Virus record (IMG/VR): IMGVR_UViG_3300036783_000353
Span: 1-49,454 of that record
Length of the DNA stretch: 49,454 nt
Origin: a virus
Lineage: Duplodnaviria; Caudoviricetes
Strand: one strand, 5' to 3'
Shown here piece by piece: positions 14,814-36,032 of the stretch (position 1 is its first letter; every line of letters starts with the position of its first letter). Made by a program: the position numbers and the translations under genes. The notes below the pieces were generated by a model. It was not told where the DNA came from and did no database searches. It saw only the letters and a program-made list of their open reading frames with translations.

Positions 14814-15842
14814 TTACTGATATTTCGCGGACAGCAAGGTCACGCCTTCCGGACGGAAGTTCCAGCCCGGAGTCGAGCGCATGGTGTACAGCGTGGTAAG
14901 ACCGCCATCTGGCATCGGAGACGGGATCTCAGTTGGCGCGGCGACATCGCAGAACATGACGTTCACCGCCTGCTGATTCGGCGTCAGAGTGGCGAAGATA
15001 TTGGTATTAATATCCTGTCGCGCATCCGGTACCACCAGCTCAGGGTTGGTCACAACGATCAGGTCAGTACCGCCAGCACCTTTGCCAATCAGCGTATCGT
15101 CCTGACAGAACAGCACATCATCACCGCTCGCGCTTTTCGCAATGGCTTTAATCATGCCACCGGTCGTATCAGTACCGGCTCCTGGACGCTGGTAACTGGT
15201 CAGTTCAACGACCCCAGTCCATTCCAGTGCTTTCATGAAGCGCTGAGGGCAAAGTACAACCGTGGTCAACGGCTGCCCCAGCAACATCATTTTGGTTTTC
15301 TGATCAGCAATCAGCCCCAGCATAAACTTAGCCATTTCACCCGCATCCCAGGTGGTGTAGGTGTCATTGCCCTGGCTGTCACTTCCGAGGTTGAGCGTTG
15401 TTGCGCTCGGGGAATTGGTAATCCCCTCGTTGTTGGATGCCTTCACGCCGTAAAGCAGCATATTACGCATCTGCTGGGCATGACCCTGACGGTTTGCCAG
15501 ACGCAGGCCATCTGTCAGTGAATAGCCCCAGCGGTTAGCCGCATCGGTATCCAGATAACTGTATTGTGAGCGGGTTGAAATACGATAGGTCATCATCTGG
15601 TCGTAACCGCCAGTGATGGTAGCTGACGGCAGCTGACCAGGGAGAGACTGGCCTACATGCGCCTGTGTCGTTGCGCGGAGGTATTTCTGGTAAACGACGA
15701 GGTCGCTTGAACCAATTTTCACCGTCGGTGCAGAGCCAGGCAAAATATCGAATGCGCCGGATGCCATGCTGTACTGCATGATAATTTCCGGCAGCATCAT
15801 CGATGGCGATACTGTGGTAATCGCAGGTGCGAATGCGCTCAT
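14814..15842 (-). CDS. Major capsid protein
   Basis: 342 aa after scaffold and decoration genes, strong SD AAGGAG, followed by a terminator; LLYG....NNEGITN motif. Confidence 0.85.
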   Translation of the reverse strand: MSAFAPAITTVSPSMMLPEIIMQYSMASGAFDILPGSAPTVKIGSSDLVVYQKYLRATTQAHVGQSLPGQLPSATITGGYDQMMTYRISTRSQYSYLDTDAANRWGYSLTDGLRLANRQGHAQQMRNMLLYGVKASNNEGITNSPSATTLNLGSDSQGNDTYTTWDAGEMAKFMLGLIADQKTKMMLLGQPLTTVVLCPQRFMKALEWTGVVELTSYQRPGAGTDTTGGMIKAIAKSASGDDVLFCQDDTLIGKGAGGTDLIVVTNPELVVPDARQDINTNIFATLTPNQQAVNVMFCDVAAPTEIPSPMPDGGLTTLYTMRSTPGWNFRPEGVTLLSAKYQ

Positions 15843-15852
15843 TACTTACTCC

Positions 15853-16473
15853 TTAAATTAAGAACAGGCCACACGGCTTATCGGTGTTCCAGATCACGTT
15901 GCCGCTGGTCTCTTTTTCGACGGTCAGGTTGCCCAGCATGGAGACCATCAGCAGCTGGATGTTTACTTTCGGGTTCGCTGAAGTAGCGCTCGAGTAAACA
16001 TCGATGACGTTATTTGTCAGATCCCACACGAAACCATCAGCGCCCACCGCTTCATTACCGCTGTTAGCGAGTGCTGCAACGGCCTGGCTCACTGGAAGAG
16101 GAATTCGGGCACCGGACCCAATGCGGAAGTAGTGAACTGATCCACCAGCGAGGTACAGCGGTACCGGATTCCCTGCCGTGGTAATGCCGTGATAGGCCTG
16201 GTTAACCACCGAGAACGCATTACAGACGGATGCTGTTGCGAGCTTAATGCGCGAACCAGCGACATTTTCGTCAGGCTTAGCGATGCATTCCATAACGCCT
16301 ACGCCACCCCAGATCGGTGCTGCGAGCGCATCATCCAGAGAACCAGAACACAGCTGCAGGCGAATAGCAGGATCGTCCTGAGCATCGCCTTGCGTCAGAC
16401 CACGCGATTCGACATTAAACATGCCCGCGAAAGAACCTTGTGTTTTGAAAGGATCGAGATTAATTGCGGCCAT
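15853..16473 (-). CDS. Capsid decoration/cement protein
   Basis: Between scaffold and capsid; PIWGGVGV and VHYFRIGSGARIPL motifs. Confidence 0.65.
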   Translation of the reverse strand: MAAINLDPFKTQGSFAGMFNVESRGLTQGDAQDDPAIRLQLCSGSLDDALAAPIWGGVGVMECIAKPDENVAGSRIKLATASVCNAFSVVNQAYHGITTAGNPVPLYLAGGSVHYFRIGSGARIPLPVSQAVAALANSGNEAVGADGFVWDLTNNVIDVYSSATSANPKVNIQLLMVSMLGNLTVEKETSGNVIWNTDKPCGLFLI

Positions 16474-20002: not shown

Positions 20003-21325
20003 TTACAGTGCTTCGTAGTTGCCGAACGCGATGATCAGCCCGTACGTGTAGCAATCGAAGAGGTCATCGGCGCGTTTGTGCGCTTTCGGGTCTGCCAGGT
20101 GGAAACCGGCGATTTGGCGGATGAGGTGGTTTGCGGTCTTTTTCTTGAACTCAACAGTTTTGTCATAGGCGGGTTGAGCGATTTTCGCTTTCTCCTGCCA
20201 GTGATGACCGGACGCCAAAACTGCCCTCTCGTCTTTACCTTTCGCCGTCAGAGCCGATTTGATGGGCCTCATGTCCCAATCTTCGGTTTCGGCTTTCTGG
20301 TTGAGGATGGCGCCCATTGCGGCGTCTTCCATGAAAACACCCTGGCTGCCAAGACGAGGGCGGCAAATCTTCGCCAGCCGCTCGAGGTTGTCGTATACGC
20401 TCGGCATGTATTCCGGAAGCAGCGACGCCTTAATCTGAGTGATATCCCAGTCGATAATCGTCAGCCGTGGCTCGGAGTAGGTTTCCTCATAGGCGAAGTA
20501 AACGAACCCTGTACCGTCGTTTTCGGTACCGCCTTTTAGCGCGGTATCAGCCACGGCAAAGATCATGTCGCAGGTATCTGGCATTACTACAGGCTGGCCA
20601 TCCACCAGCAGCTTGTTCACGTCCAGCAATGCGTCTTTCGACCAGTCGATAAATTCAGCCAAAAATTCCTGCTGCCACACTCGCGGATCCGTATTCTTTT
20701 CGATTTCCGCCAGCTCGTCGGCTGGTAAGTGAGGGTTGGTCGAAGTTGGCGCGTGGTGCTTATGGAAGCCGTGCGCGGGGTCGTTGCAAATGGCGTAGAA
20801 AAAGTTCTGGTCGTTAATGCCGTCTGGAGTGGAAAACACCCAGGCTCGACCACGATAGTCCACCAGCGTGGGCTTGATAGCTCGGGGCCAGACTTCCTCA
20901 AGCATTTCCGGGGCTTTAGTAAATGCCGCCTCATCTATCAGGACGGCGTGGTATTTACGGCCACGGCCTGCGAGTTTGTTATCGTCAGTAACCCAGAAAT
21001 CAATTTTCCCGCCGTTTTTCAGGAGAATTCGCTTTTCACTTCGTGACTGCGTTTTGATCAGCGGCCCGAGATAGGCGATCAGCTCATCAAATATTTCCTG
21101 ATACTGACGGTACTGCGCGGTAAAGATGCCTACGCGCCCCGCTATCGCTTTTTGAGTACCGGGGATAAGAAATTTATTGGTGGCGTAGCTTATGGCCACA
21201 TCCACCAACATGACCGTTTTACCCCAGCGACGACCACAGCAAACAGCGTTGTATCGGTACTGACCTCCCTCGGTCCAGACGTGCAACTGCCCCGGGTGTA
21301 GTTCCGGAAGAAAAATATCCATCAC
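20003..21325 (-). CDS. Terminase large subunit
   Basis: Walker A CGRRWGKT, Walker B VLIDEAAF, motif III FSTPDG, QQEFLAEF; RNase H-like nuclease acidic residues (ADTA...DDLFD). Confidence 0.95.
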   Translation of the reverse strand: MMDIFLPELHPGQLHVWTEGGQYRYNAVCCGRRWGKTVMLVDVAISYATNKFLIPGTQKAIAGRVGIFTAQYRQYQEIFDELIAYLGPLIKTQSRSEKRILLKNGGKIDFWVTDDNKLAGRGRKYHAVLIDEAAFTKAPEMLEEVWPRAIKPTLVDYRGRAWVFSTPDGINDQNFFYAICNDPAHGFHKHHAPTSTNPHLPADELAEIEKNTDPRVWQQEFLAEFIDWSKDALLDVNKLLVDGQPVVMPDTCDMIFAVADTALKGGTENDGTGFVYFAYEETYSEPRLTIIDWDITQIKASLLPEYMPSVYDNLERLAKICRPRLGSQGVFMEDAAMGAILNQKAETEDWDMRPIKSALTAKGKDERAVLASGHHWQEKAKIAQPAYDKTVEFKKKTANHLIRQIAGFHLADPKAHKRADDLFDCYTYGLIIAFGNYEAL

Positions 21326-21339
21326 ATCCCCGTCGGTAT

Positions 21340-22368
21340 TTATTCGCAGCCAGGAGGTTTAAGCGAATTGTGAATAATGATCTGCTCATTGCCGTTGCCA
21401 CCATTACGGAGGTTTTCGATTTCGGCTTTGATTTTTTCATTGCTCAGACGAGCACGTTCGATTTCCAGTAACCGAAGTTCTCTGTCCTGCTCGCTGGAGG
21501 CCAGATTGTGGAAAGCTGCGAGGTTTTTCAGTGCAGCATCCTGATCCCTCGTCATCACCTCTATGCCGAATTTTGTTTTCTTCACGCCAGCGATTAACCG
21601 ACGGGCTGGCCCTACGAGGTCGCGGGTGTCAGTCAGGAAAACATCTTCGATGCCTTCACCTGCGCAACGTGGACACTCAGGATTGGGATCGTCGTTCGGC
21701 ATAAACCCGAGGCCACCATATTCAGGTGCTGGCTTACCGTCCGTTGAGGCTTTTTCTGCGGCCTTATCAAACTCGTCAATATCTCGCCACTGATAGAGAA
21801 AATTCTCCCCCCAGCAATAGCGACAACATAAGCGGCGCATTTGAGAAACTTCGCCAGGGTCGGCAATCGCTATTTCATGCCAGTGTCTGAGAATGTCCTG
21901 GGCTTTCAATATTGCTTGCCCGGCTAATTGTTCAATACCCTGATTGATGGCTTTTGCTATCGAAGGCTTTCGGTAAAGTATCCTCGCGTTTCGAGGTCCG
22001 CCTGTATAACCAGCCTTGCTGTATGCCTCGTACTTATCGCGGCACTCGAGAAAGTAGGAAACAAATAGTTTTTCCTTCTCGGTTAAATCTGCGCAAAAAG
22101 CGGATCTTTTCGGATCTGTGTTTGCGCATTCCTGTGCAGACTTATCTTTTACCTTCCCCTGTGCTCTCGGGGCTTTTGCCGGATTCTGCGCATCTTTTTG
22201 CGCAGTTTTTTTTTGCGCATTATTCTGCGCAGGCTTTTTTATGTAGCGGCGAGCACTGTCGTAATTCAGCCCCTGTTGCTCACACCATTCTTTCGGAGAG
22301 ATTCCCGTACTGGCGTAAGCAGCAGCAAACTGAGATTGCAGCTCCTTCCAGTCGGGTTTGCTCATCAA
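21340..22368 (-). CDS. Terminase small subunit with Zn-finger insertion
   Basis: KPDW N-terminus, LTEKEKLFVSYF...AYSKAGY HTH, CCRYCWG...CPRC, GVKKTKFGIEVMTRDQDAAL. Confidence 0.9.
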   Translation of the reverse strand: MMSKPDWKELQSQFAAAYASTGISPKEWCEQQGLNYDSARRYIKKPAQNNAQKKTAQKDAQNPAKAPRAQGKVKDKSAQECANTDPKRSAFCADLTEKEKLFVSYFLECRDKYEAYSKAGYTGGPRNARILYRKPSIAKAINQGIEQLAGQAILKAQDILRHWHEIAIADPGEVSQMRRLCCRYCWGENFLYQWRDIDEFDKAAEKASTDGKPAPEYGGLGFMPNDDPNPECPRCAGEGIEDVFLTDTRDLVGPARRLIAGVKKTKFGIEVMTRDQDAALKNLAAFHNLASSEQDRELRLLEIERARLSNEKIKAEIENLRNGGNGNEQIIIHNSLKPPGCE

Positions 22369-22628
22369 TCACTGTCCTTACTGCGCGAAAGTCTCATCAG
22401 CTCGTTATAGGCGTACACATCACCGTTACGGGCACGCTTGTACAATGCCCCACGTAATTCAGCTTCACCTTTAGCGGTACCAATTCGAATGGCTTCACGA
22501 AATAGCGTTAGCGTCTTCCTGTCTTGCCTCAGTTCGTCCATGTCGATATCGAGTACGTCTGCTATCTGCTGCTCTGTCAGACGACGAGCGGCCAGCGCCT
22601 CTACCTTTTCACGAGCGAACATAAGCAC
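22365..22628 (-). CDS. Small HTH protein (terminase-small-like)
   Basis: VEALAARRLTEQQIADVLDI...FREAIRIG.AKG...L..ALYKRARNGD; coupled to TerS. Confidence 0.7.
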   Translation of the reverse strand: MLMFAREKVEALAARRLTEQQIADVLDIDMDELRQDRKTLTLFREAIRIGTAKGEAELRGALYKRARNGDVYAYNELMRLSRSKDSD

Positions 22629-22630: not shown

Positions 22631-23497
22631 CTACGATTTGATATGCAGTACCATTCCGTAGTCATCAGTGCCGGCAGGCAGTTGAATTTCCTCTTTCAGA
22701 CGAAGACGCAGTTTTTTGAATCCCCGATAATCCACATAATGATGAACACGACCGAAGCGGAACATCATCCTGGAAATGTCGGGATGCATCTCAATCTGCA
22801 TTTTGCTTTTGTTATACGTCCCCTCTTTCGCGTAAAACTCTGCGGTGTTTCCACCTTTTGTTTTTTGCGTCTGGATTTTTTGTTGGAGGAACGCATTGAA
22901 CTGGACCGTACACCAGCCAGCCTTGAGCATTCTCAGTGATAAATCCGTATCCTCGTTGTAACGCCCTCGCCACCGAAACGGGAGGTCGTTGCGAATAAGG
23001 TTGCAGGAGTAAATGCGGGTATTGGTAACAAATGGCGGTAGCTTGTCCCTCTCCGGGGCAAACATGGCGTAATTAGGCCCCGCCATTCCTACGTTCTGAT
23101 AACGCTGCACAAAATCCTCCATGCAGCGGAATATGGTCCCGTCACCCACGCGGATCCGCTTGTTTTTATGCAGACGGAAAAAATGACGGATGTTGTCATC
23201 CATAACCCAGTGCCAGGCGAACCCGTTGGCTATCGAGTGATCCCACGCAAAATTCCGCGCTGCACCCGGGCCGACGCTTTTAGTCAGCCCCAGATCGTCA
23301 AAGGTGTCATAGTCACGCTGGTATTGCTTATCGAGCACCAGAATATTCTTCGCATCGATGACTGCGGCGTACAGGTCATATTCTGTTTCCTCGATCACGA
23401 TGTGATATGGGACTCCAATATGTTCCAGCGCTTTGGCCGTCATGCGAGAATCAGCCCGACCCTTGCTGACGATATAAATCGGGTAATTAGGATTCAT
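22631..23497 (-). CDS. TAGT/GREB1-like GT-A glycosyltransferase
   Basis: YPIYIVSKGR, GPGAARNFAW, WVMDDNI, RIYSCNLI, RYNEDTDLSLR and KGGNT motifs of phage TET/JBP-associated glycosyltransferases. Confidence 0.8.
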   Translation of the reverse strand: MNPNYPIYIVSKGRADSRMTAKALEHIGVPYHIVIEETEYDLYAAVIDAKNILVLDKQYQRDYDTFDDLGLTKSVGPGAARNFAWDHSIANGFAWHWVMDDNIRHFFRLHKNKRIRVGDGTIFRCMEDFVQRYQNVGMAGPNYAMFAPERDKLPPFVTNTRIYSCNLIRNDLPFRWRGRYNEDTDLSLRMLKAGWCTVQFNAFLQQKIQTQKTKGGNTAEFYAKEGTYNKSKMQIEMHPDISRMMFRFGRVHHYVDYRGFKKLRLRLKEEIQLPAGTDDYGMVLHIKS

Positions 23498-24126
23498 CGC
23501 TGATGTATGCCTTATTCACCGTGGATTCCCGTTTATGTTCCGGGTACCAGATATATTTCGTTTTCGCCGTTATCTGCTGCTGCACGAGCTGGGCGAATAG
23601 CGCAACGTCAGCATCAGTCTCGAAATGCACAATAAGCTGGCGTACGCCGTTGGTGTTTCCCTGATCGAATGCAGGCATTCCAACCCAATGGTCTGTTGGG
23701 TCGTCAGGCTCAACGCCCAAAATATTCCCTACTTCCAGATCACTGAATCCCAGCAGACCAATATCAAAATCAACATCCTGTAGCGCCTCAATCTCCACTT
23801 TAAGGAGTTCGCCATTCCAGCCGGCATTGAGAGGCAGTCGGTTATCGGTTATCCGCTATCCGGTACGCAGTTTTTTGCGTATCGGTAAGACCCGACAAAG
23901 TGATAGTGGGTATTGAGGTAACACCCATTTGCTCTGCGGCCAACACACGGCCATGTCCTGCAATTATTTCACCGTTATCATCAATCAATATCGGGTTCGT
24001 CCAGCCAAACTCCTCAATGCTCGCCACAAGCTGCAACACTTGCCGATCGTCATGCGTTCGGGCGTTGTGAGCATATGGGGTTAGATCCTTTAACGGGCGA
24101 TAGACGATTTTAAGTTTCTCAGTCAT
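23487..24126 (-). pseudogene. ParB/Srx-domain protein fused to a TAGT-partner domain, frameshifted by a 7-bp duplication
   Basis: PYAHNARTH, SIEEFGWTNPILID, IIAGHGRVLAA, AYRIADNR*. Removing one TCGGTTA copy restores ADNRLPLNAGW and joins both ORFs into 210 aa. Confidence 0.9.
23838..23851. repeat. Exact 7-bp tandem duplication (TCGGTTA)x2
   Basis: Sequence reads tcggtta tcggtta tc. Confidence 0.95.
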
Positions 24127-24372
24127 ATCTCCGCTCTCTGATAAAAAAGCAGCGATGATCAATGCGCAGGGTGCGCGGCGGGTATCACTACTGCTTTAAC
24201 AATCACTATCGGGCACCATCGTAATGACCCCCTGTAGTGGCTGCTGTATAGGGAAAACTTGTAAGCACTGGTACCGGCAGCTGGTTGTCCGGTGGTTCAG
24301 GAAAGAGTTGGGGATCGCCGTTGAAGAATACGCTCCCCGCTTTACGCCACAGCTGGATATGTTCTGAAGCAG

Positions 24373-24393
24373 AGCCGGGAAAACCCGGCTTTT
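24373..24393. terminator. Hairpin/terminator at the end of the moron
   Basis: AGCCGGG-AAAA-CCCGGCT-TTT; the T tract is on the plus strand, so efficiency for the minus-strand gene is uncertain. Confidence 0.5.
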
Positions 24394-24817
24394 AGCTGAA
24401 AACGAATTTTTCGTCCATAATCGCCAAACAGTGATTCATCAAAACAAGAGTAAAAACATTCCCTGCTAAATATTCAGAATGTGCAGAAACTAAGCCAGCC
24501 CAATTCTCGGAAACTTTTTTGTTAGTTTTGAGTAAACCCTCACAAGCCATCCACTCAAAAGTGCACTTCCCATAAATTTTCTTTAATTCTTCAGTTTTAG
24601 CCGGCTCAGTAATATTTTTGAGCGATGGAGGCATTTGCGTTAACGCATATGCATATTCGCAAACAGCCTTCTTAAAATCTAACTTAACTCGTAGCTCATC
24701 CTGTTTTCTCCACCGAAGCATTGCCCATACAGCAACTGCTACAGTAGCCATTGCCACTAGTGCTGAAATTGCTGCCCATATGGTTGCCCAAGGCCAGTTA
24801 AAAATTGTTTGCAGCAT
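24392..24817 (-). CDS. Hypothetical membrane-anchored protein (moron)
   Basis: AT-rich; N-terminal TM helix followed by RWRK; SD AAGGAGG. Confidence 0.8.
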   Translation of the reverse strand: MLQTIFNWPWATIWAAISALVAMATVAVAVWAMLRWRKQDELRVKLDFKKAVCEYAYALTQMPPSLKNITEPAKTEELKKIYGKCTFEWMACEGLLKTNKKVSENWAGLVSAHSEYLAGNVFTLVLMNHCLAIMDEKFVFS

Positions 24818-24841: not shown

Positions 24842-25459
24842 TTATTCTACCCTGGCAAACGCATAACTGCCGATACCCTCGCGCCCGAGCTGCGTCTCAA
24901 AGTCGTTGCTCTCCATCAGTGCGAAGCCCTGCTCTGCGAACCAGCTGACCAAGCCGTCGTGGGTCCAGTACCAGATATGTTCGTCCCGGCGGAAATGGCG
25001 GGAGCGGATGACGTGCTCTGCACCGGAAAAGATCGGTACCGAAACGAATACCCATTTTTCCGCTCGAGCTACGGCGACGTCCGGGCGGTCGATATGCTCC
25101 AGGCTATCCCAGAACGATAGCGCGGTGTAACGCTCCCGGTAGAGATGCGCCCACATACCCCGCTGCTTTAACCACTCCACACCTGCAGGGTTTACGTCGA
25201 ATCCTTTCGTGTCCGGCCGGGCCGTGACAAATTGCCCTGCGCCTATCCCCACGTCGAGAACCTGGCCAGTATAGTGCCGGGCCACCAGCCTGATACGTGC
25301 CGCCGTCAGTTCTCGCCCGAGTTCTGTGTCGGCCAGCTGCTGGTACCGGCAGAAGTAATTTTCATCATACGGGCGATTTTTCGGTACCGGATACCGGCCC
25401 ATACCGAGTTCGGGCAGCCAGATCAGGCCGCGATTAATTTCTTGTGAAAATCTCTTCAT
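24842..25459 (-). CDS. Class I SAM-dependent methyltransferase
   Basis: VLDVGIGAG (motif I), GFDVNP, FWDSLEHI, VFVSVP; ATGA overlap with the upstream gene. Confidence 0.9.
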   Translation of the reverse strand: MKRFSQEINRGLIWLPELGMGRYPVPKNRPYDENYFCRYQQLADTELGRELTAARIRLVARHYTGQVLDVGIGAGQFVTARPDTKGFDVNPAGVEWLKQRGMWAHLYRERYTALSFWDSLEHIDRPDVAVARAEKWVFVSVPIFSGAEHVIRSRHFRRDEHIWYWTHDGLVSWFAEQGFALMESNDFETQLGREGIGSYAFARVE

Positions 25460-26364
25460 GCTGCGTTCCGCCTGCGAGCCTGCTGGTAGACATTTGTGAT
25501 GAATCCCTCCACCTTGCCGGGCAACCCACTGATGCGCTTATCGCAGTCGTGGATCATTTCCTGGCATTTGCAGTAGCGGTCCGGGTAGATAAAGAGCGCG
25601 GTGGAAAGATCCATGCAGCGCGGGTCCGTCACCTTCGAGTGATGGTTGTTGCCACCATTGCCACCAGCGAGGCAAATCATCGGACGCTGATACGCCAGTG
25701 CAGCATGCATGATGACGCATGGCCCGGTCAGCACGATATTTGCGCTTTCCACCAGCGCCAGCATTTGCCAGATGGTCAGTTCGCCGTGATGGAATTTCTG
25801 ATGAGCGAAAGGCTCGCCGTCAGGAATCCACTCTTTCCCCTCCTCCACATCAGCGACGCTGATGACGTGGAAGCCGCAAATAGCCAGGCGACGCGCAATG
25901 TCATCGATGTACTGATTCAACGGGCCACGGCTGGCGTTATGCCATTCCGAACGTTCCGTTGTAGGTCTAATCACGGCCACCGGCTTACCTGCGGGAATGC
26001 GGAGACCAGCAGCTGTGTAGCTGGGCAAATCCATCGGCGCTGGCGCCGTACCAAACTGCTGTTGCATCGCGTCGAAAATGCCGCCTTGCTGCAGGTGTCC
26101 ATTTCCGTAGAAAACGCGATTGCGGGGAATGCCCGGCGGTTCGCACTCAAACGGCACTGTGGAAGACTGCTCGCTTTTCTTCTGCGTGCGCAGCGGCGAG
26201 TTGGCATGAACAAAATGAAGGTTTGGGATACCGGCATAAATTTCAGGAAGCGGCGTTTTCAGCCAAATTTCGTGTCCTTTTTGGGCCAACGCTTTGATGA
26301 AACAGCGCTGGTTGATGTTGTCGCCGATGCCGTGCATCCCGTCAAAATAGAGTTTTTCAGGCAT
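25456..26364 (-). CDS. GT9-like (GT-B) glycosyltransferase
   Basis: N-terminal GIGDN motif; C-terminal GELTIWQMLALVESANIVLTGPCVIMHAALAYQRPMICL resembles the heptosyltransferase signature; likely start MPEKLY at 26364 (SD GAGG). Confidence 0.75.
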   Translation of the reverse strand: MPEKLYFDGMHGIGDNINQRCFIKALAQKGHEIWLKTPLPEIYAGIPNLHFVHANSPLRTQKKSEQSSTVPFECEPPGIPRNRVFYGNGHLQQGGIFDAMQQQFGTAPAPMDLPSYTAAGLRIPAGKPVAVIRPTTERSEWHNASRGPLNQYIDDIARRLAICGFHVISVADVEEGKEWIPDGEPFAHQKFHHGELTIWQMLALVESANIVLTGPCVIMHAALAYQRPMICLAGGNGGNNHHSKVTDPRCMDLSTALFIYPDRYCKCQEMIHDCDKRISGLPGKVEGFITNVYQQARRRNAA

Positions 26365-26902
26365 TAAGAGCCGCCTCAAGTGATAAGCGAGTGAAGCAGG
26401 TCAGCGCGGTTTCGCGCGACGCGTTGATGATTTCCACGCCCGGTAGGAGGCCAGCCAGGGTGGAGAAGTCGGTGTGCCATCGCTCTACTTCGCGCGGTAC
26501 CGGATTGTGCATGGTGACCGGATGTCTGCCGTGCCAGTGAGCACCGTTCGCCAGGGTGCAATCGTAACCCAGCAGGATCACCCTCTCAGCGCCGAGGTGC
26601 ACAGCGAGCTGTATGGCACGCTGGCCGGAATTGAATGGGCCGCCTTCCGCTGGACTGAATAGACTCACGCCGAACCGCAGGTTTGCACGCTTGCTTTGGG
26701 TCCAAAGTGCGGCAGTGGTCTCCAGCGAGTCATGGTAATGATCCCACCAGGCAAAATCAGATGCGTAGATGTGCTGGCAGTCTGGCACTGCCCTCCAACT
26801 CGAATTTACCGCGATTACCGGATAACCGGAGCCAGAGACCAGTACGCAGTCGTCCGTCGTCAACGAAGGGCCGCTGGCGACACAGATAAAGGTTTTTTTC
26901 AT
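26357..26902 (-). CDS. Maf/DUF115 (GT42 sialyltransferase-fold)-like protein
   Basis: ICVASGPSL, VIAVN, NSGQRAIQLAVHLGAERVILLGYD, HWHG, IINAS. Confidence 0.7.
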   Translation of the reverse strand: MKKTFICVASGPSLTTDDCVLVSGSGYPVIAVNSSWRAVPDCQHIYASDFAWWDHYHDSLETTAALWTQSKRANLRFGVSLFSPAEGGPFNSGQRAIQLAVHLGAERVILLGYDCTLANGAHWHGRHPVTMHNPVPREVERWHTDFSTLAGLLPGVEIINASRETALTCFTRLSLEAALNA

Positions 26903-26913
26903 GAGTTTTGACG

Positions 26914-26937
26914 AAAAAAAACCGCCCGTAGGCGGTT
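26914..26937 (-). terminator. Strong terminator immediately upstream of the glycosyltransferase trio
   Basis: AACCGCC-TACG-GGCGGTT followed by a long T run on the minus strand. Confidence 0.85.
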
Positions 26938-26955: not shown

Positions 26956-27276
26956 TTACAGTTCTTTAACCGAATAAATCAACTTTTCTGAGGCGAAATC
27001 TTTCCTGAACAACAAAGTGATAACCATTTCAAAACCATTATCATTTTGAACTATGGTGGCTTTTCTGAAGGAATAAATTCCACGGGCAAATGCTATTTGT
27101 GCAGGTTCATCTAATTCCAAACTCCACACACCATTTTTAATGGTCTCGCTGTTGGTTCGTTTCAGTTCACCCGATACCCCAGCTTTCAAAACATAAGTTG
27201 ATTCAGCTCTTTTGCCATCTCCATCAACAAAAATTGTCCTGATTGATGGGCCAAACTTGGTTAAAGACATCAGCAT
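26956..27276 (-). CDS. Hypothetical protein (moron)
   Basis: AT-rich; likely start MLMSLTK at 27276 after AAGGGA; followed by a terminator. Confidence 0.65.
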   Translation of the reverse strand: MLMSLTKFGPSIRTIFVDGDGKRAESTYVLKAGVSGELKRTNSETIKNGVWSLELDEPAQIAFARGIYSFRKATIVQNDNGFEMVITLLFRKDFASEKLIYSVKEL

Positions 27277-27317: not shown

Positions 27318-27354
27318 CATTATCACAGGCACTCAATGAATGCCTGTTGTAATG
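27318..27354. other. Imperfect hairpin of the type common downstream of lambdoid Rz genes
   Basis: CATTATCACAGGCACTC-AAT-GAATGCCTGTTGTAATG. Confidence 0.6.
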
Positions 27355-27360: not shown

Positions 27361-27924
27361 TTAAAGTGCGTTAAAGATGTCTGTAAACTTCTTGATGAGG
27401 TCTTTATCAGGTTGGAAGTAAAAACGCCCTCCCGACGACGTGGCTATGGAGAGTTTTAGGTTACGCGGGTTTGCACCCTTATCCTTCATATCCTGAGCGA
27501 ATTTTTGAAACCAAGATTCTTCTTTGTTGATCAAACTAATCCAAAAGAAACCTTGTTCACCATATTCAATTCGCTTTGGTAGATTGTCAGAATCAGCGTC
27601 ACCAAGCATCTGGTGCCAGTAACATTTTTTCCTTCGATACCAATCAGTACTAGCCCAAGACTTTCCGCACGACCAGCCAATACTAGTCAATTTGACAGGC
27701 ATGGCTGTTAAATTTGTGACAACAATGGCAATGCCGGGCTGCTGTGCATTGTCTCCCTGAGCCCCGGGGGTCACGATGATCCTTTCCCCAACATCACATG
27801 CAACCCTAACTTTTGTTTTCCTGTTCGCAAGGTACAGCGATGTTACAACCGCTATCAGTGTCCCTATGCCTGAAACCCAACCTCCAATTGCCGAGAATAA
27901 AGCAATTTTATCAGCAGTTGTCAT
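27361..27924 (-). CDS. Hypothetical membrane-anchored protein (moron)
   Basis: N-terminal TM (IALFSAIGGWVSGIGTLIAVVTSLYLA) then a beta-rich domain; SD GAGGAG; lower GC. Confidence 0.8.
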   Translation of the reverse strand: MTTADKIALFSAIGGWVSGIGTLIAVVTSLYLANRKTKVRVACDVGERIIVTPGAQGDNAQQPGIAIVVTNLTAMPVKLTSIGWSCGKSWASTDWYRRKKCYWHQMLGDADSDNLPKRIEYGEQGFFWISLINKEESWFQKFAQDMKDKGANPRNLKLSIATSSGGRFYFQPDKDLIKKFTDIFNAL

Positions 27925-27996: not shown

Positions 27997-28539
27997 CTAA
28001 TGGGTAGCGATTTGTGTAGCAGTTACTTTGTCATAGGTTCGTTCGCAAGTGCTGCCGGCGACATAACGTTCATCAGCCTCTTTTGCGAACTCTCCCGCCA
28101 GGCTGTCAGCTTCGCCAAGCAGCTGGGCGAGCAGACTGGCGACCTCGGCTTTTGCTGCGCTTGCGGCGGCAATTGCGGAAAGTCGGCCTGTTTCGCTTCC
28201 TGCGAGTTTCCGCTGTAAGACTTTGAGCTGCTTCCGCAGCCCGTCAGCAGCAAGATCAGCAGCATCAGCATCAGCCTGCACATTTGCCAGCTCGTCGGCG
28301 GCCCTTTTCTGTTCATCGTCAACCGCCCTCTGTCTGCGCCGTTCTTCCGCACGCTCGGCGACCTCGCTGTGCAACGTTGCGGTTGAGTCAGCCAGGTCAC
28401 GCTGCAACCACTGAAGGTTCCAGGCGGAATCCGCCGACTCATAACCCGCGTCGTATGCTCGCCATAACAAAAAAACCACCAGCAATGTGATCGCCAGTGG
28501 CTTCCAGTATTTCCCGAGCAACCCGAGCAGCGCCGTCAT
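27997..28539 (-). CDS. i-spanin (Rz-like, DUF2514)
   Basis: N-terminal TM, coiled coil, ADERYVAGSTCERTYD C-terminus; follows the endolysin. Confidence 0.9.
   Translation of the reverse strand: MTALLGLLGKYWKPLAITLLVVFLLWRAYDAGYESADSAWNLQWLQRDLADSTATLHSEVAERAEERRRQRAVDDEQKRAADELANVQADADAADLAADGLRKQLKVLQRKLAGSETGRLSAIAAASAAKAEVASLLAQLLGEADSLAGEFAKEADERYVAGSTCERTYDKVTATQIATH
28023..28283 (-). CDS. o-spanin (Rz1-like lipoprotein) embedded in Rz
   Basis: MCRLMLMLLILLLTG/C lipobox, Pro-rich mature part with CSPSC, different frame inside the i-spanin gene. Confidence 0.85.
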   Translation of the reverse strand: MCRLMLMLLILLLTGCGSSSKSYSGNSQEAKQADFPQLPPQAQQKPRSPVCSPSCLAKLTAWRESSQKRLMNVMSPAALANEPMTK

Positions 28540-29147
28540 ACCAGCACCGATTTTGCCTTATCGAAGCGCTTGCGGCGGTCATCAAGGCCGTTGGTACCGC
28601 CATTGATAATTTTCGTGACTTTTTCCACGTCGCCCGGATATTTCAGGCAGCCCTTTGAAACGTAAAACCATGCAGCTGAACGTGCTGCATACGGCTCTTG
28701 CTCAAGGAATTGTGGTGCAGCCAGCAGATCGACACCGATTCCTGTGGCGCATTCTTTGTAATTGTCGTGCCCGGTAATCTGAATCAGGCCACGGCCGCGA
28801 AAATTCCAACCATCATTTTCTTCAACATTGCCCATGCGGTGCGCATAGACAATATTTGCGATAGCCTGCTGGTTCGCTGGGTGATCCGCTGTACGTCCAT
28901 ACTGCTGTGCCGTATCACCAGGGAAATATTTACCGAACGTCGCCTTTAATCCTTCAGCTGAATAATTCAGGTTCTCCACGATACGGGTAAAGCCTCCAGA
29001 TTCGTGCCCCACCTGGGCGATAAACATCGCCTGATCATGTGCCTCGACGATCCCAAACTCTGCCATTGCTGCGCTGACCGGCTGAAACCAACGCGCGGCA
29101 ATTCCAGCGCTGATTCCAGCTGCCTGCTGAAACTGTGATTGATTCAT
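28536..29147 (-). CDS. Endolysin, glycoside hydrolase family 19
   Basis: FIAQVGHESGGF...ENLNYS, FRGRGLIQITG..NY, SAAWF, TKIINGGTNGL.DR. Confidence 0.95.
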   Translation of the reverse strand: MNQSQFQQAAGISAGIAARWFQPVSAAMAEFGIVEAHDQAMFIAQVGHESGGFTRIVENLNYSAEGLKATFGKYFPGDTAQQYGRTADHPANQQAIANIVYAHRMGNVEENDGWNFRGRGLIQITGHDNYKECATGIGVDLLAAPQFLEQEPYAARSAAWFYVSKGCLKYPGDVEKVTKIINGGTNGLDDRRKRFDKAKSVLV

Positions 29148-29152
29148 AGGGT

Positions 29153-29455
29153 TTACTCTGTTTTGTGAGGATTGTGATACCGGAAGATTTTCGAAATATT
29201 GCCACCAGCCAGGACAACGACAGCAGCGAAGGCCATGATCAGGAGGGCTTCAGGTGGGCTGACGGTTTTATAGTGGTCGGTGAGTATGAGGATCACGATA
29301 GAACCGCTGGCCACGATCAAAATGAGGGTGAAAATCTTAGCGAAAATACTGTGCTTTGCTCCCTTGCGCTGATAGGTTCCCAGCGTGATGGAAATCACCG
29401 AACAACTGAACGCTGTCAGCATCAGGAGCGCTTCATTTAGCGTTACCATCCCCAC
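29153..29455 (-). CDS. Holin-family membrane protein (3 TM)
   Basis: Three hydrophobic segments, YQRKGAKHS loop, GGNISKI; directly upstream of the endolysin. Confidence 0.75.
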   Translation of the reverse strand: MGMVTLNEALLMLTAFSCSVISITLGTYQRKGAKHSIFAKIFTLILIVASGSIVILILTDHYKTVSPPEALLIMAFAAVVVLAGGNISKIFRYHNPHKTE

Positions 29456-29831
29456 CTCCGGAAAGCAGACGGCTCAGGATTGTCTGAACGTTCACTTTCC
29501 TCAGTGAGATGAGGAAGCATACGCCCACTGCCGCTGCGACCGTCGCACCCAACCAGGTGCCAATCACTATTCCATCGGGCAGATATTTCCCTACCAGTTC
29601 GTTGAGAATCGCCGTTGTCAGCTCTGCACCCAGAATACCGATCAGGAAAGACGCCACGAAATACCCCACTTGCGCTATTCGGCTCAATTCCTGTGATGAC
29701 AGCACGTAGACAACGGCACCAGCAAACGCCCCGACATAAACCCCTGCTGGCGTATCTGCAAGCAGGCTTGCAAACGTAACGCTCGTTATTGCCAGCGTAG
29801 TAGTCGTGGCTGTGGATACAGGTTCACCCAC
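29433..29831 (-). CDS. Putative holin/antiholin
   Basis: EPVST N-terminus, GAFAGAVVYV, F..SFLIGILGA; multiple TMs; GTG start. Confidence 0.75.
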   Translation of the reverse strand: MGEPVSTATTTTLAITSVTFASLLADTPAGVYVGAFAGAVVYVLSSQELSRIAQVGYFVASFLIGILGAELTTAILNELVGKYLPDGIVIGTWLGATVAAAVGVCFLISLRKVNVQTILSRLLSGGGDGNAK

Positions 29832-30363: not shown

Positions 30364-31050
30364 TCAGTCGGTAACTTCGTCTAAAACTTGATCCATCTTA
30401 AGAAATAAAACCCCCTCCAACGCACGTCTATCCAGATCGATCACTGCAGCCTTTAAATCGCGCCAGTGCGGCGCGTATATTTCGCACCAGGTAGCGCGCG
30501 AAACTCCAAGGTGCGCCGCCAGCGCCGCTCCTGCATAAACCTTGTATGTGTCGTTCAGGTTCTGCGCGGCCACTTCCTGCACCGCCAGCCACACCAGCCC
30601 AATGAGCCGCTTTCTGGTTTTTTTCATCAACCCTGCTGGAAGGCGCTCGTGGTGCTCGTTCCAGATCGATTCACAAATCAACGTCTGGTGTTTAAATGCC
30701 AGATCAAAACCGTAGCAGTAGCGGAGCCATGACTGCCCATGTTCTGGGATCATATTCACTGCGCGGCGCCACGGTGCAGCCGCAAATTCATTATCGTTAA
30801 TCGGCGGTAATGGTCTGCGGCGACTGCGAGTTTCAAGAACGTAAAGCGCCGAGTTCTCGGCTTTGACTGCGCGAGTACCACCCTTTCCGTCCTCCAACTC
30901 AACAACATGAACCGGTTTACGTGAGTTTCGATTCTTATCCGCCAGCGGATTTTCGCTGAATGCCTCAAGCTGGCCTTTGGTTTTGCCTGAGGTATCCCTC
31001 AGGGCTTGAGTGAGCTCAAGTCGAGCGTAATTAAGCAAGTTTTCGTCCAT
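30364..31050 (-). CDS. Late-gene antiterminator Q
   Basis: LNYARLEL..AL.D.SG.TKGQLEAF, ETRSRRRPLPPI, WRRAV, WLRYCYG; upstream of the lysis cassette. Confidence 0.9.
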   Translation of the reverse strand: MDENLLNYARLELTQALRDTSGKTKGQLEAFSENPLADKNRNSRKPVHVVELEDGKGGTRAVKAENSALYVLETRSRRRPLPPINDNEFAAAPWRRAVNMIPEHGQSWLRYCYGFDLAFKHQTLICESIWNEHHERLPAGLMKKTRKRLIGLVWLAVQEVAAQNLNDTYKVYAGAALAAHLGVSRATWCEIYAPHWRDLKAAVIDLDRRALEGVLFLKMDQVLDEVTD

Positions 31051-31343
31051 CAGATAAACCCCTCACGACGCCAGATAGCGAGCGTTCTCATCACTCCCTC
31101 GGCGTGCATCAGCTTTAGCTCGTCATGGGTGTATTCGGTTTTCGCGCGCCCGTCGATTGCGTCGTGGCACCCATTGCAGGAAATCGCGCCCTGCAGGTCG
31201 TCGGGCTTGCAACCAGTTCCGCACGTACCGGCAAGCCGGTAATGCGCCAGTACGCTTGTCTCAGTATTAAAATTGCAGATGCCGGGGATACGAACGGTGC
31301 ATTCCCGGCCCCGGGCCTGCTTCCTGAGATCGACTTTTTTCAC
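31050..31343 (-). CDS. DUF1364 (YbcO-like) HNH-related protein
   Basis: LRKQARGRECTVRIPGICN...TSVLAHYR...G.KPDD...CNGCHDAIDGR; GTG start overlapping the MTase stop. Confidence 0.9.
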   Translation of the reverse strand: MKKVDLRKQARGRECTVRIPGICNFNTETSVLAHYRLAGTCGTGCKPDDLQGAISCNGCHDAIDGRAKTEYTHDELKLMHAEGVMRTLAIWRREGFI

Positions 31344-33319
31344 GCTGCCACCTCCTGCCCGGTGCATAGCTCGGGAAGATTCGCGCGCACCAGCGCCTCG
31401 GCGAACGGTGGCGGCACGGCGTTACCGCATCGTGCGACCTGCTTATCTTTTGCGTAGCGGTTGCCGTCAGCGTCCTGGTCAATCACGTACCACTCGGGGA
31501 AGCCCTGAGCGCGATACAGCTCATGCGGCTGTAGCATGCGCATGCAGATATCGACGATCTGGTAGGTGCATCCGTCGATTTCGATATATTCGCACCAGTC
31601 ATCACCGCAGTATTTCTGCAGGAATTCGCGGACCTTATTCGCGTTAGGGTGTTCATAGCCATACTCACCGGGCATCATCACAGACTGCACCTCTCCGATA
31701 TGCAGGCCACCAGCTGTAACTGTCGGCACAGGTTGAGTAATCTCCTGCCCGTCCCTGCAGTTCTTACGTAAAACCACGAGGTGAGATGTAACGAGAGCAT
31801 GATGATCGGTTGTCGTCACTGTATGGGCTGGCTCGTCCATTGCGATCCCCGCCCCCGTATAGTTGCCGCCGAAATGCTTCACCATGTGCGCAGTTACGAG
31901 GGCATGCTTTCCGCCGCCAGCAACGACAGTGCCGAGCGGCTTATCCAGTCCGGGCACGCGCGGTGATTGTCCTGGTCGTTCCGAATATCCCACCTGAATA
32001 AGCGTGGCGGCCGCCAACTGGCTTTTTCCACCTCCACCCGCGGTAATTGTTCCAGAAGGCTGATCGACTGAATGCGCCGTGCTGTTCCCAAACTGGCGCA
32101 CGACTACCGGCGCTACAACACAAGCGCGGGACTGCTTGAGGATTGTGTGAGCAGGCTGATCAACTCCGCGTGGCTTCGCCTGGTACTCACTGCCGCCATT
32201 GCCAGCGATGAAAGGGGTCAGCATGGCCTCAACCATACCGAGGGCATGCCCATTCCCGCCGGGGCGCTTTGAAGTACCTGCAGTGACCGTCGGCGCGGGT
32301 TCAGTCAAGGGCTGTCCGGTTGCGCCAGTGCGGAATTTTGTCAGGTGTGGGATCACGACGGCATAGCCGTGTTTTCTGGTAATTGTCTGTAATGGATCTG
32401 CCAGGGACTGACCACGGAAACAGTTGTAATTGCTCCCGGTGTGGTTACATTTCACAATGAAAGGCGCGGCATTGTGGATCACAAATTTTTGCATTCCGCG
32501 TGCCACGCGCTTTAGGGTGTTTTCTGCCAGTGGTTTTTTTCGGTCAAAAATTGAAGCTGCTGGAAGTGTCCAGTCGATGCAATCTGCTGCTGTCTTCCAC
32601 GGCTGCAGTGCACCATTTCTTACCGCATCCGTTTTTGGATCGCCGTGGCTTGCTGCAGGCCAAACAATCGGCCGCCCGTCGCACCGCATCACCATGAAGA
32701 ACCTTTTGCGTATCGTCGGCGCGCCATAATCACAGGCGCGTAGTACCCGGAAATCTACCGTGTATCCGAGGCCGGACAGTAATTTTTTTCCGTCTTTGCT
32801 GTTAGGCGCTACCCGAAGGAATTCGCAGGCCTCCGCGTGCGCCGGATGCCCGGCAGCGATACCGCTGGAGAGCATGCCGCAGAACGCTTCAAAGGTTTGC
32901 CCGGCTCGGTCTGGATCCGGGCGAGTCTCACAGTTGAGCAGTGGCCCCCACGTTTTAAACTCCTCTACGTTTTCCAGCATCATCACGCGGGGCCGAGTCT
33001 GCAGCGCCCAGCGGAGGACGATCCACGCCAGCCCCCTGATTTCTTTTTTTACAGGCTTCGCGCCTTTCGCCTTCGAAAAATGGCGGCAATCAGGACTGAA
33101 CCAGCCTAAATCAACGGGCCTCCCCGCTGTCGCAGCTACAGGATCAATATCAAAGACAGATTCGCAGTAATGCAGCGTGCGCGGGTGGTTACGGGTGTGC
33201 ATAGCGATAGCATGCGGGTCGTGGTTAATGGCAATGTCAACCGCGCGCCCGATAGCCTGCTCGATGCCAGTTGACGCCCCGCCGCCGCCTGCAAAATTAT
33301 CAACGATTAGTCCGCGCAT
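31340..33319 (-). CDS. DNA (cytosine-5) methyltransferase with long repetitive variable region
   Basis: DNFAGGGG (I), SPDC (IV), ENV (VI), RKRFF (VIII), RMLQPHELYRAQGFP (IX), GNAV (X). Confidence 0.95.
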   Translation of the reverse strand: MRGLIVDNFAGGGGASTGIEQAIGRAVDIAINHDPHAIAMHTRNHPRTLHYCESVFDIDPVAATAGRPVDLGWFSPDCRHFSKAKGAKPVKKEIRGLAWIVLRWALQTRPRVMMLENVEEFKTWGPLLNCETRPDPDRAGQTFEAFCGMLSSGIAAGHPAHAEACEFLRVAPNSKDGKKLLSGLGYTVDFRVLRACDYGAPTIRKRFFMVMRCDGRPIVWPAASHGDPKTDAVRNGALQPWKTAADCIDWTLPAASIFDRKKPLAENTLKRVARGMQKFVIHNAAPFIVKCNHTGSNYNCFRGQSLADPLQTITRKHGYAVVIPHLTKFRTGATGQPLTEPAPTVTAGTSKRPGGNGHALGMVEAMLTPFIAGNGGSEYQAKPRGVDQPAHTILKQSRACVVAPVVVRQFGNSTAHSVDQPSGTITAGGGGKSQLAAATLIQVGYSERPGQSPRVPGLDKPLGTVVAGGGKHALVTAHMVKHFGGNYTGAGIAMDEPAHTVTTTDHHALVTSHLVVLRKNCRDGQEITQPVPTVTAGGLHIGEVQSVMMPGEYGYEHPNANKVREFLQKYCGDDWCEYIEIDGCTYQIVDICMRMLQPHELYRAQGFPEWYVIDQDADGNRYAKDKQVARCGNAVPPPFAEALVRANLPELCTGQEVAA

Positions 33320-34956: not shown

Positions 34957-34983
34957 AAAAGCCCTGTTAGCGCAGGGCTTTTT
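34957..34983. terminator. Bidirectional hairpin terminator at the end of the ImmA gene
   Basis: AAAAGCCCTG-TTAGCG-CAGGGCTTTT. Confidence 0.75.
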
Positions 34984-35458
34984 ACATATAAAAATCGAAT
35001 GACATCTGTTGGGTTCTTACACCAATCGTTTCCAATGCTATATCTGCGAAAGTATCGGCTTGCCATTCTGCATCCTCAACACGAGTAGCTTCTTTAGCTG
35101 AAAAGTGTAACACCGGTTTATGGCCGAGAAGTAAATGACCTAATTCATGGAAAATAACGGCCAGAGCATGCTCTTCACCTAAGCAGGCATTAACATATAT
35201 TTTATTTGGTACGGTAATCGTCAGAGAGGCAGGGTCGCAGTGCCCAATTGTGAGATCGAATGTCAGGGCTTCCCATTCTTTATCAGTCATTACATCTAAA
35301 GTAACCCCATAAGTAGACAAACTTTCGAAAAAAAGATCGTAACGCTTACGCTTGCGTTTTGAAGCTGTAAGACCGATTGCATTGCAGAAGTTGATAGCCC
35401 TGTAAGCTATTTCTTCTTCTTGCATAGGTGACACCCTATTGCCTCTCATCTGATACAT
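34982..35458 (-). CDS. ImmA/IrrE family Zn metallopeptidase (stand-alone)
   Basis: IFHELGHLLLGH...AEWQADTFA (HExxH plus E..A..FA); likely start MYQMRG. Confidence 0.9.
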   Translation of the reverse strand: MYQMRGNRVSPMQEEEIAYRAINFCNAIGLTASKRKRKRYDLFFESLSTYGVTLDVMTDKEWEALTFDLTIGHCDPASLTITVPNKIYVNACLGEEHALAVIFHELGHLLLGHKPVLHFSAKEATRVEDAEWQADTFADIALETIGVRTQQMSFDFYM

Positions 35459-35460
35459 GA

Positions 35461-35820
35461 TCAACCCTCATTGTTGTTAATTTTTTGCAGTAATTCAGCA
35501 AAACTCTTGAGTTGCTCTGGCGTGAACTGCGACTTGGCAAATCCTGCCACCAGCATCTTCTGTTGCTGAGACAGACCATTCACCGGAACAGTATCATTCG
35601 CAACAGAAGCAAGTTCCTGAAGCCCTTCAACTATTACGCCTTTCGTTTTAAAGAAAGACTCAATTTTTTTAACCCATTTCTGGGGTATTTTTTTACTGCC
35701 TGTTTCTAATCCACTAAGAAATGCAGGAGTGGTTTCCAGTTCCTGAGACATAGTTAAAAGTGTGCTGCCAGTATCTATCCTCGCTTTTCTGACGGCCTTA
35801 CCGAATTCAGTGAGTGCCAT
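35461..35820 (-). CDS. XRE-family HTH transcriptional regulator
   Basis: LTEFGKAVRKARI...L..MSQEL.TTPAFLSGLETGSK; SD GAGG. Confidence 0.9.
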   Translation of the reverse strand: MALTEFGKAVRKARIDTGSTLLTMSQELETTPAFLSGLETGSKKIPQKWVKKIESFFKTKGVIVEGLQELASVANDTVPVNGLSQQQKMLVAGFAKSQFTPEQLKSFAELLQKINNNEG

Positions 35821-35978
35821 GATTAAATCCTCAGTTGGTTGGTATTGCAGACTGGCTCAATGCATGTCTGCTGGGTTGCTCATAATCTAATGAGCTAACT
35901 TTACCATTAGAAAGAGAAAAGTAAACCTTTTTGGTTAATTTTCTTACCGAATGCTGTGAATAAATTTATGCTTTGAAG

Positions 35979-35996: not shown

Positions 35997-36032
35997 TCAG
36001 TGTACTTATGAAGAAAGTGCCTCAGCTAGTGA

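Follow-up and report, generated by a model that had tools for sequence, protein, structure and literature searches.

The window analysed here is a 49,454-nucleotide stretch of viral DNA (IMG/VR record IMGVR_UViG_3300036783_000353), which Pfam and PHROG scans show to be a prophage that combines a lambdoid early region and a Q gene with genes for lysis, terminase, head and a contractile tail. Between its lysis genes (27997-29831) and its terminase genes (20003-22628) lies a trio of open reading frames on the minus strand, ORF1 to ORF3 (24842-26902; all coordinates refer to the whole window), whose products resemble the flagellin glycosyltransferase Maf, a glycosyltransferase (GT) of family GT9 and a methyltransferase. 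We consider it probable that the trio carries out late, cytoplasmic O-glycosylation of virion proteins. One line of support for this reading is that the top fold match of ORF1 (Maf) and the top Foldseek match of ORF2 (TibC) are both protein glycosyltransferases. The cassette is mobile and dispensable, and it sits in the late operon.

Predicted folds of the three proteins

The predicted structure of ORF1 (predicted local distance difference test score, pLDDT, 90.8) was closest to Maf (Protein Data Bank, PDB, entry 5mu5), which Foldseek ranked first and which superimposed with a Z score of 15.0 and a root-mean-square deviation of 2.7 over 165 aligned residues. CstI (Z 11.0), SteA (10.6) and MptE (9.6) ranked lower, followed by mammalian sialyltransferases. 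Structure prediction thus bears out the Maf-like assignment of an earlier note on this DNA, which had been made from the letters alone. ORF1 belongs to phrog_4603 (E 5.7e-56), whose name, 'alpha-2,3-sialyltransferase', is an annotation label only; a sequence search of the PDB with ORF1 returned nothing useful. GT42 sialyltransferases combine a glycine loop that binds cytidine monophosphate (CMP) with a catalytic histidine. Across 95 sequences of the ORF1 family, A9-S10-G11-x-S13, N33, N91-S92-G93, G112, H122-W123-H124 and H127 are invariant; at the level of motifs, the A-S-G-x-S loop and the three histidines, together with N33 and the N-S-G motif, are candidate counterparts.

Maf transfers CMP-activated ulosonates to Ser/Thr residues of proteins, and maf genes lie beside flagellin and nonulosonate synthesis genes. 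ORF1 shares the catalytic fold of Maf and of the GT42 enzymes CstI/CstII, but it is a single 181-residue domain without the flanking domains of the 632-residue, multi-domain Maf chain, of which its model covers residues 271-512 only, and it lies in a phage late operon with no flagellin or sugar-synthesis genes nearby. The donor of ORF1 is probably a CMP-activated ulosonic acid; because the fold holds pyrophosphokinases as well as CMP-ulosonate transferases, we infer this donor rather than read it from the fold.

For ORF2 (pLDDT 93.7; phrog_6804, E 6e-70), Foldseek ranked TibC first (E 3.2e-10), ahead of WaaF (E 5.2e-9). The model has a GT-B fold with Z scores of 18.3 to a Veillonella GT9 protein (3tov), 18.1 to WaaF, 17.8 to TibC and 14.8 to WaaC, in agreement with the GT9-like assignment of the earlier note. 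G12, G14 and D15, the last at the position of the catalytic Asp, are invariant in the family, as are W179, C265, C267, H272 and C274; I180 is near-invariant. The GT9 profile PF01075 scored 15.9 bits on ORF2 scanned without its first Met, under the gathering score of 22. A profile designated A2 matched WaaF with E 2.2e-4. GT9 heptosyltransferases of lipopolysaccharide (LPS) synthesis carry the heptose-binding motif D-S/T-x-x-x-H; in ORF2, H220 (conserved in less than 90% of the family) aligns with its His and a Pro occupies the Asp position. ORF2 of the window shares with WaaF and WaaC the fold and the catalytic Asp, has a His aligned to the heptose-contact position, and differs from them in its sub-threshold Pfam score, its shorter N-lobe, the missing Asp before that His and its location in a phage.

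The profile of ORF2 fitted a TibC/Aah homologue, with W179/I180 aligned to its putative thumb-tip Phe-Val, at a probability of 64%, and a protein taken by its position to be WaaQ-like at 27%; both fits are weak. TibC is described as having a barrel at its N-terminus, an N-lobe of four strands, a thumb formed by a beta-hairpin with a hydrophobic tip, an iron finger made of four Cys, the residue Asp110 and four contacts to the donor (PMC4358343). With the bacterial autotransporter heptosyltransferases (BAHT) TibC and Aah (4rap, 4rb4), as described there, ORF2 shares the GT-B fold, the Asp of a G-x-G-D motif and an N-lobe of about 110 residues with four strands (4-8, 32-36, 49-52 and 81-83 in the model). 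It also has residues that align to the thumb tip and a C-terminal finger-like motif, C265/C267/H272/C274, which is a candidate metal site. By contrast, the barrel is absent, as the model spans only residues 95-391 of TibC; the finger is Cys3His, not Cys4, and differently spaced; and no autotransporter gene is adjacent. Of the donor contacts Thr226, Lys230, Arg286 and Trp305 (a numbering inferred from motifs), the first is kept as T135 and the others correspond to S139, beside the invariant R138, to M202, so that the adenine-contacting Arg is missing, and to H220. The BAHT model TIGR04414 was not among the ORF2 matches at E 0.1. ORF2 resembles a protein heptosyltransferase, yet it is not a BAHT member.

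ORF3 matched PF13489 (Methyltransf_23) with 36.9 bits against a cut-off of 27 and belongs to phrog_6564 (E 1.2e-82); a sequence search of the PDB returned weak methyltransferase matches only. The sequence profile agrees with the methyltransferase call of the earlier note, and the protein is predicted to O-methylate the glycan.

Late-operon organization

The arrangement reported in the earlier note was reproduced throughout: three overlapping genes of the coupled type, joined by an 8-nucleotide overlap between the ORF1 stop and the likely ORF2 start (ATG at 26364) and by an ATGA overlap between ORF2 and ORF3, and located between lysis and packaging genes. Its statements on composition and membrane segments were likewise upheld. 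The trio has a GC fraction of 0.56-0.58 and a GC fraction at third codon positions of 0.65-0.68, the latter inside the range of the backbone genes (0.48-0.71) and above that of three AT-rich neighbours (0.36-0.44). Peak hydropathy over 19 residues was 1.14, 1.71 and 1.06 for ORF1, ORF2 and ORF3, and 2.03 and 2.73 for the holins; judged by hydropathy, not by a signal-peptide predictor, the trio contains no stretch as hydrophobic as a holin. Pfam and PHROG scans of 30 and 57 window ORFs turned up no gene for nucleotide-sugar synthesis, flippase or polymerase, as the note had said.

ORF1 has no obvious Shine-Dalgarno sequence. An intrinsic-terminator-like site lies about 10 nucleotides before its ATG, with no promoter-like site in the gap; over 9.2 kb the scan found 4 promoter-like sites, where shuffled sequence led to an expectation of 8.0. 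This part of the earlier claim holds. The terminator itself seems to have come with an AT-rich insert and was rejected as a cassette part: in 7 of the 13 closest relatives (among 24 loci viewed), Rz is followed by a conserved hairpin and then at once by ORF1, while 4 have such a terminator and 2 are arranged otherwise. The AT-rich genes between Rz and ORF1 are missing from close relatives. The conserved, imperfect hairpin (z -5.25, reached in 0 of 200 shuffles) had no Rfam match, nor was any Rfam family found elsewhere in the window; it could be an mRNA processing site or a stabiliser. We infer that read-through dependent on Q brings the cassette onto the late transcript. None of 17 runs listed was an RNA run holding it, which has no bearing on whether it is expressed.

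The cassette has AT-rich inserted genes on either side (24392-24817, 26956-27276 and 27361-27924, all on the minus strand), two of them with an N-terminal hydrophobic stretch.

Distribution among phages

Among 50,697 phage records, 77 matched ORF1, 29 ORF2 and 32 ORF3. With ORF1 or ORF2 as query, a procedure that favours close relatives, 184 viral and genome loci were recruited, of which 105 are non-redundant at 95%. All three genes occur together in 95 of these 105 loci, and in 81 of the 87 with 1.5 kb on each side. By nearest markers, the module lies between Q and lysis genes in 20 loci, between lysis and terminase genes in 34, between capsid and neck genes in 12 (plus 6 with one marker) and at baseplate genes in 2; 'LYS' labels inside the module are shadow frames and were disregarded in these counts. 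The neighbourhood survey suggested in the earlier note finds the trio recurring in four late-operon slots, including among head-neck and baseplate genes of unrelated phages.

In phage D3, orf7 follows the capsid gene and orf12-13 follow the head closure gene, so that the module is interleaved with head-tail adaptor and closure genes. The full trio is present in 65 of 65 D3-type loci with a capsid at least 93% identical and at least 4 kb of room (from a set of 80, of which 9 were dropped as short and 6 with distant capsids lack the trio). PAJU2 carries the three genes (ORF010-012) together after the adaptor; the designation of ORF010 as 'structural protein' is an annotation label only. The D3 and PAJU2 proteins are 36-48% identical to those of the window and are functionally uncharacterised. 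Eowyn carries the trio as a unit, Mulvp2 has it within the head-tail block, and homologues in BUCT-ZZ01, CcrSC and S20 lie within virion gene blocks; in a T4-like cyanophage, homologues of just ORF2 and ORF3 follow the neck genes.

ORF1 homologues are also found with other sets of glycosyltransferases (GT2, GT4, GT-D and DxD-type) in P1, phiNP, IME392, CcrSC, S20 and the loci L112 and L158. The earlier note knew of no characterised system with this make-up in an enterobacterial phage. The family as such already occurs there, ORF1 being 41% identical to P1 PmgO; the literature searched yielded nothing functional on the PmgO family. Nor was a description of the trio as a set found in that literature, in which subscription journals are thinly covered. 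The genes are already in PHROGs and in model phages, but are so far unexplained. In P1 (P7 hdmB/C/D), PmgO stands beside a second Maf-like protein and a protein judged DxD-type by eye, not beside ORF2 and ORF3 homologues. Likely, pmgO/pmgP/pmgQ form a functionally uncharacterised glycosylation cluster, with similar sets in phiNP, IME392 and L158. Within the P1 cluster (L003:4944-7502), pmgO and pmgP have weak MptE/Maf-like matches. Single deletions of pmgO, pmgP and pmgQ exist (PMC9024508, supplement), and in the sections of the sources considered, pmg deletions caused neither a plaque nor an antirestriction defect (PMC9024508) and CRISPR interference gave plating efficiencies of 1.1 for pmgO, 0.72 for pmgP and 1.4 for pmgQ (PMC10695390).

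Several further arrangements were noted. CcrSC (L167:6016-10502) has, between tail and lysis genes, a cluster of six genes: a Maf-like gene, two genes whose products resemble capsule Kdo transferases by eye (Kdo, 3-deoxy-D-manno-oct-2-ulosonic acid; no Pfam hit), an unnamed one, a methyltransferase and a GT9 gene. L032 (6-2399) and L195 (2751-5123) encode proteins of about 790 residues; that of L032 joins ORF1-like and ORF2-like parts to a further C-terminal domain, and L194 and L195 cluster with it. P0150, of 505 residues, looks like an ORF2-ORF3 fusion.

Matches to the trio in E. coli genomes were partial (9 of 5426, none covering 80%). An Enterobacterales sample of 401 genomes gave strong ORF1 matches in 4, one of which is the centre genome, and one weak, broken match; most of the named sequences in the ORF2 and ORF3 clusters come from Enterobacter. 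In the family of the window phage, 19 loci were recruited by terminase; 5 were dropped as short, and of the 14 whose upstream DNA is complete, 11 carry the cassette. Among 50 related records picked for a flank without ORF1, of which 20 are at least 90% complete, none showed the cassette with a profile that did match in the Enterobacterales sample. The cassette is accessory in this family and fixed in D3-type phages.

Prophage sugar transferases are often seroconversion genes, and most of the related loci are prophages, which would fit ordinary lysogenic conversion, with the trio switched on in the lysogen to alter the cell surface. We regard this as extremely unlikely. The cassette has no promoter-like site of its own, a terminator 10 nucleotides upstream and backbone-like codon use; 175 of 176 nearest markers share its orientation; and homologues occur in Eowyn (a jumbo phage), the T4-like cyanophage and Caulobacter jumbo phages, all of which we take to be lytic. 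Seroconversion cassettes of the gtrABC type have their own promoter and a membrane flippase and transferase, both of which the trio lacks.

Inheritance with virion genes

FastTree trees were built for the 73 loci that hold the complete trio and could be given a head label (9 types, defined by terminase, portal and capsid clusters). Head type changed 10 times on the ORF1 tree, 13 times on the ORF2 tree and 16 times on the ORF3 tree (minimum 8, shuffled 44; means of 25 bootstraps 10.9, 12.6 and 15.7), ORF1 following it best. For the 44 loci with a lysin label, head type changed 6, 6 and 6 times (minimum 5, shuffled 23) and lysin type 19, 20 and 21 times (minimum 7, shuffled 22.4). For the 44 loci with a Q label, 7, 7 and 8 changes of head type compare with 19, 21 and 19 of Q type (shuffled 24.6). 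Across 15 loci that share one head type, the genes flanking the trio include four kinds of Q and five of lysin, which indicates that the trio stays with the virion block while its neighbours are exchanged.

These results also bear on two other targets. The cassette follows the terminase-portal-capsid block, packaging included, and in the window it adjoins a ParB-like and TAGT module (PF20691, 158.7 bits). Late modification of phage DNA before packaging, giving nuclease resistance as with Mu mom or ParB-TAGT modules, would account for both, and we hold it to be very unlikely: a TAGT gene lies near the cassette in just 10 of the 105 loci, too few for the ParB-TAGT neighbour to count as a fixed cassette part; there is no DNA-modifying transferase among the top fold matches of ORF1 and ORF2; ORF3 belongs to Methyltransf_23, not to a DNA methylase family; and antirestriction is unchanged in P1 knockouts, as far as the cited sections go (PMC9024508). 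The trio might instead act late on the host, glycosylating a host protein to disarm a defence sensor or consuming a metabolite such as CMP-Kdo or ADP-heptose (ADP, adenosine diphosphate). Both folds include protein-modifying enzymes, and the cassette is dispensable in the laboratory and moves across unrelated head types. A host target, however, would not explain why the trio is inherited with head or sheath alleles when the Q and lysis genes are swapped, nor its 65/65 retention in the D3 neck block; we think it distinctly unlikely.

Candidate acceptor sites

In the family of the window phage (21 carriers and 26 chosen non-carriers), the major capsid protein has Ser154 in all 18 distinct versions from carriers and in 1 of 15 from non-carriers. 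A 206-residue protein in the usual decoration-protein slot, its role assigned from position, contains 15.5% Ser+Thr in carriers and 10.6% in non-carriers, with 6 columns gaining and 0 losing Ser/Thr in carriers; over 14 genes, 19 columns gain and 8 lose. L232, a carrier nested among non-carriers (its ORF3 lies at the contig edge), has both Ser154 and the Ser/Thr loop of the 206-residue protein.

A second family, of myoviruses with an HK97 head, comprised 80 loci (11 carriers, 44 non-carriers and 25 unplaced). Among its 13 genes, only that of the tail sheath separated carriers from non-carriers by a single change in all 10 bootstraps; one further gene did so in 3 of 10. The trees contained the 11 carriers, 7 close non-carriers and 5 of the 37 distant ones. 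Identity to the reference sheath is 84-100% for ten carriers and 68-69% for the 7 close non-carriers, whereas the tube and capsid of the latter are 98% and 92-94% identical, respectively. Divergence peaks at sheath residues 121-240, with a 7-residue insertion containing a conserved Thr-Ser in the four carriers shown. A general Ser/Thr enrichment of carrier virion proteins was rejected, as it failed in this family. We regard the candidate acceptors as leads for mutagenesis, not as proof.

The sheath result matters for a further alternative, in which WaaZ-like, WaaF-like and methyltransferase activities modify the LPS inner core late in infection, so that progeny avoid the debris of the dying cell or lysis of the envelope is altered. 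WaaZ is a Kdo transferase of LPS synthesis, and the Atlas lead for ORF1 (0.89) goes to an MptE-like/WaaZ cluster with WaaZ on 43% of its members; for ORF2, WaaF ties with TibC at Z of about 18, and the A2 match is to WaaF. In 54 of the 105 loci a lysis gene is nearest on one side and Q or terminase on the other. Core enzymes of the WaaC/WaaF type are soluble peripheral proteins that need no membrane segment, so the lack of one in the trio does not count against an LPS target. Yet the trio tracks virion genes and not the adjacent lysin type, other phages carry it in among their neck and baseplate genes, the N-lobe of ORF2 has the reduced TibC-type form, and a gene-specific tie to a sheath allele would not be expected of an LPS enzyme. 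An LPS target is in our judgement unlikely.

Proposed mechanism and its assessment

For virion glycosylation, the preferred reading, we propose the following scheme. Read-through from Q would express the cassette late, and its products would probably act in the cytoplasm while particles assemble. ORF1 would place the first sugar on Ser/Thr of a virion protein from a CMP-ulosonate, as suggested by its fold; this may be CMP-Kdo, the ulosonic donor that enterobacterial hosts always make. Its role as initiator is suggested by its being the common gene of cassettes whose GT2, GT4, GT-D, GT9 or DxD-type partners vary. ORF2 would add a second sugar, with ADP-heptose as the best guess for the donor, although its TibC-like traits would also allow direct glycosylation of protein. 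ORF3 would then O-methylate the glycan, giving a short, methylated O-linked chain on surface Ser/Thr loops. Host nucleotide sugars are the presumed donors because the cassette surroundings contain no synthesis genes. Granted the glycosylation model and an enterobacterial host, Kdo and heptose have perhaps an even chance of being the sugars; the order CMP-Kdo, ADP-heptose, methyl cap, raised in the earlier note, is unproven. The acceptor probably differs by lineage, being the capsid or decoration protein in the window phage and the tail sheath in the second family, and the benefit would probably be a shielded particle surface in nature rather than plaque formation.

The closest precedent is virion glycosylation in actinobacteriophages. 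Capsid glycans are cited for the mycobacteriophages Che8 and Rita (PMC11256854), and an effect of such glycans on antibodies is described (PMC12691614); in the parts of these sources considered, the glycans of Che8-type phages are proposed to form a capsid shield that alters antibody binding. The likeness lies in phage-encoded glycosyltransferases. The trio differs in its Gram-negative hosts, its Maf-like, GT9-like and methyltransferase make-up and its late-operon location, and is known here from genes alone.

Several observations weigh against virion glycosylation. The virion target put forward in the earlier note is supported by placement among head-neck and baseplate genes and by co-inheritance with virion genes; the evidence comes from genes and models. 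The Atlas lead for ORF1 and the tie of TibC with WaaF in Z score point to LPS enzymes, and ORF2 lacks the TibC barrel and adenine-contacting Arg. Among the pmg products discussed in the cited sections, only PmgC and PmgG were found in P1 virions (PMC9024508), PmgO thus being absent, and its loss is harmless for plaques and antirestriction there (PMC9024508, PMC10695390). L147 and L155 have near-identical trios and different head types. The head labels span terminase, portal and capsid, so that capsid and packaging are inseparable, and since kin share labels, the tree counts alone are no proof of co-evolution.

The acceptor candidates face similar objections. L227, sister to a carrier, keeps Ser154 without a trio (none lies between Rz and the next gene). 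Just 3 changes of trio state fall on the capsid tree, with 1 informative pair behind the Ser154 signal, so no test is significant. In the HK97-head family no capsid column discriminates, and Ser/Thr gains and losses are 106 and 109 overall and 16 and 23 in the sheath; the sheath split amounts to a single contrast, which may track host genus, and L232 has the non-carrier sheath type. In the D3 capsid, 12 gains against 1 loss likewise form one contrast, which distant carriers do not share.

Features of the cassette and of the rest of the window

Features of the cassette, its surroundings and the candidate acceptors (positions in the window)
Feature	Position	Strand	Description
ORF1, 181 residues	26357..26902	-	Stand-alone Maf/GT42-type transferase domain; predicted initiating enzyme; homologue of P1 PmgO, D3 orf7, PAJU2 ORF010
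ORF2, 302 residues	25456..26364	-	GT9-like GT-B transferase; predicted second sugar transferase; homologue of D3 orf12
ORF3, 205 residues	24842..25459	-	Class I S-adenosylmethionine-dependent methyltransferase; predicted glycan O-methyltransferase; homologue of D3 orf13
Intrinsic-terminator-like site	26913..26937	-	Ends inserted AT-rich gene, just upstream of ORF1; stem 26937-26920, then T run
Two AT-rich inserted genes, 187 and 106 residues	26956..27924	-	Between Rz and ORF1; GC 0.44 and 0.38; outside the cassette
Conserved imperfect hairpin after Rz	27318..27354	-	Between the two AT-rich inserts in this phage
Q antiterminator	30364..31050	-	PF06323, 128.6 bits
Major capsid protein	14814..15842	-	Ser154 (codon 15381-15383), candidate acceptor
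206-residue protein	15853..16473	-	Decoration-protein slot; Ser/Thr loop 162-165, candidate acceptor

The ParB-like gene (23487-24162, minus strand) is apparently split by a frameshift, its reading continuing in another frame in an ORF at 23487-23798; it is followed by an intact TAGT gene (22631-23497) and two genes resembling that of the terminase small subunit. Together these genes are a possible DNA-modifying module. Two DNA methyltransferase genes, also on the minus strand, encode a 659-residue C5 cytosine methylase (31340-33319) and a phrog_359 methylase (37952-38551). An AT-rich block at 34982-37795 (minus strand) contains a helix-turn-helix-metallopeptidase antitoxin-like gene (36033-37130), a gene of 222 codons with no assigned function and two smaller fragments matching the same families; it is a possible toxin-antitoxin or defence island.

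Implications

A wider proposal, which we regard as doubtful, is that many Gram-negative tailed phages, D3 and P1 included, coat their capsid or sheath with an LPS-like Kdo-heptose-methyl glycan built by a minimal Maf-like starter and interchangeable extenders on co-evolving acceptor loops. If virion glycosylation by the trio is true, the phenomenon would extend from mycobacteriophages to enterobacterial and Pseudomonas phages, with different enzymes, and the long-unexplained genes pmgO/P/Q of P1 and orf7/12/13 of D3 would gain a function. It would also bear on the encounters of therapeutic phages with antibodies, and ORF1 would be a very small protein glycosyltransferase usable as a tool.

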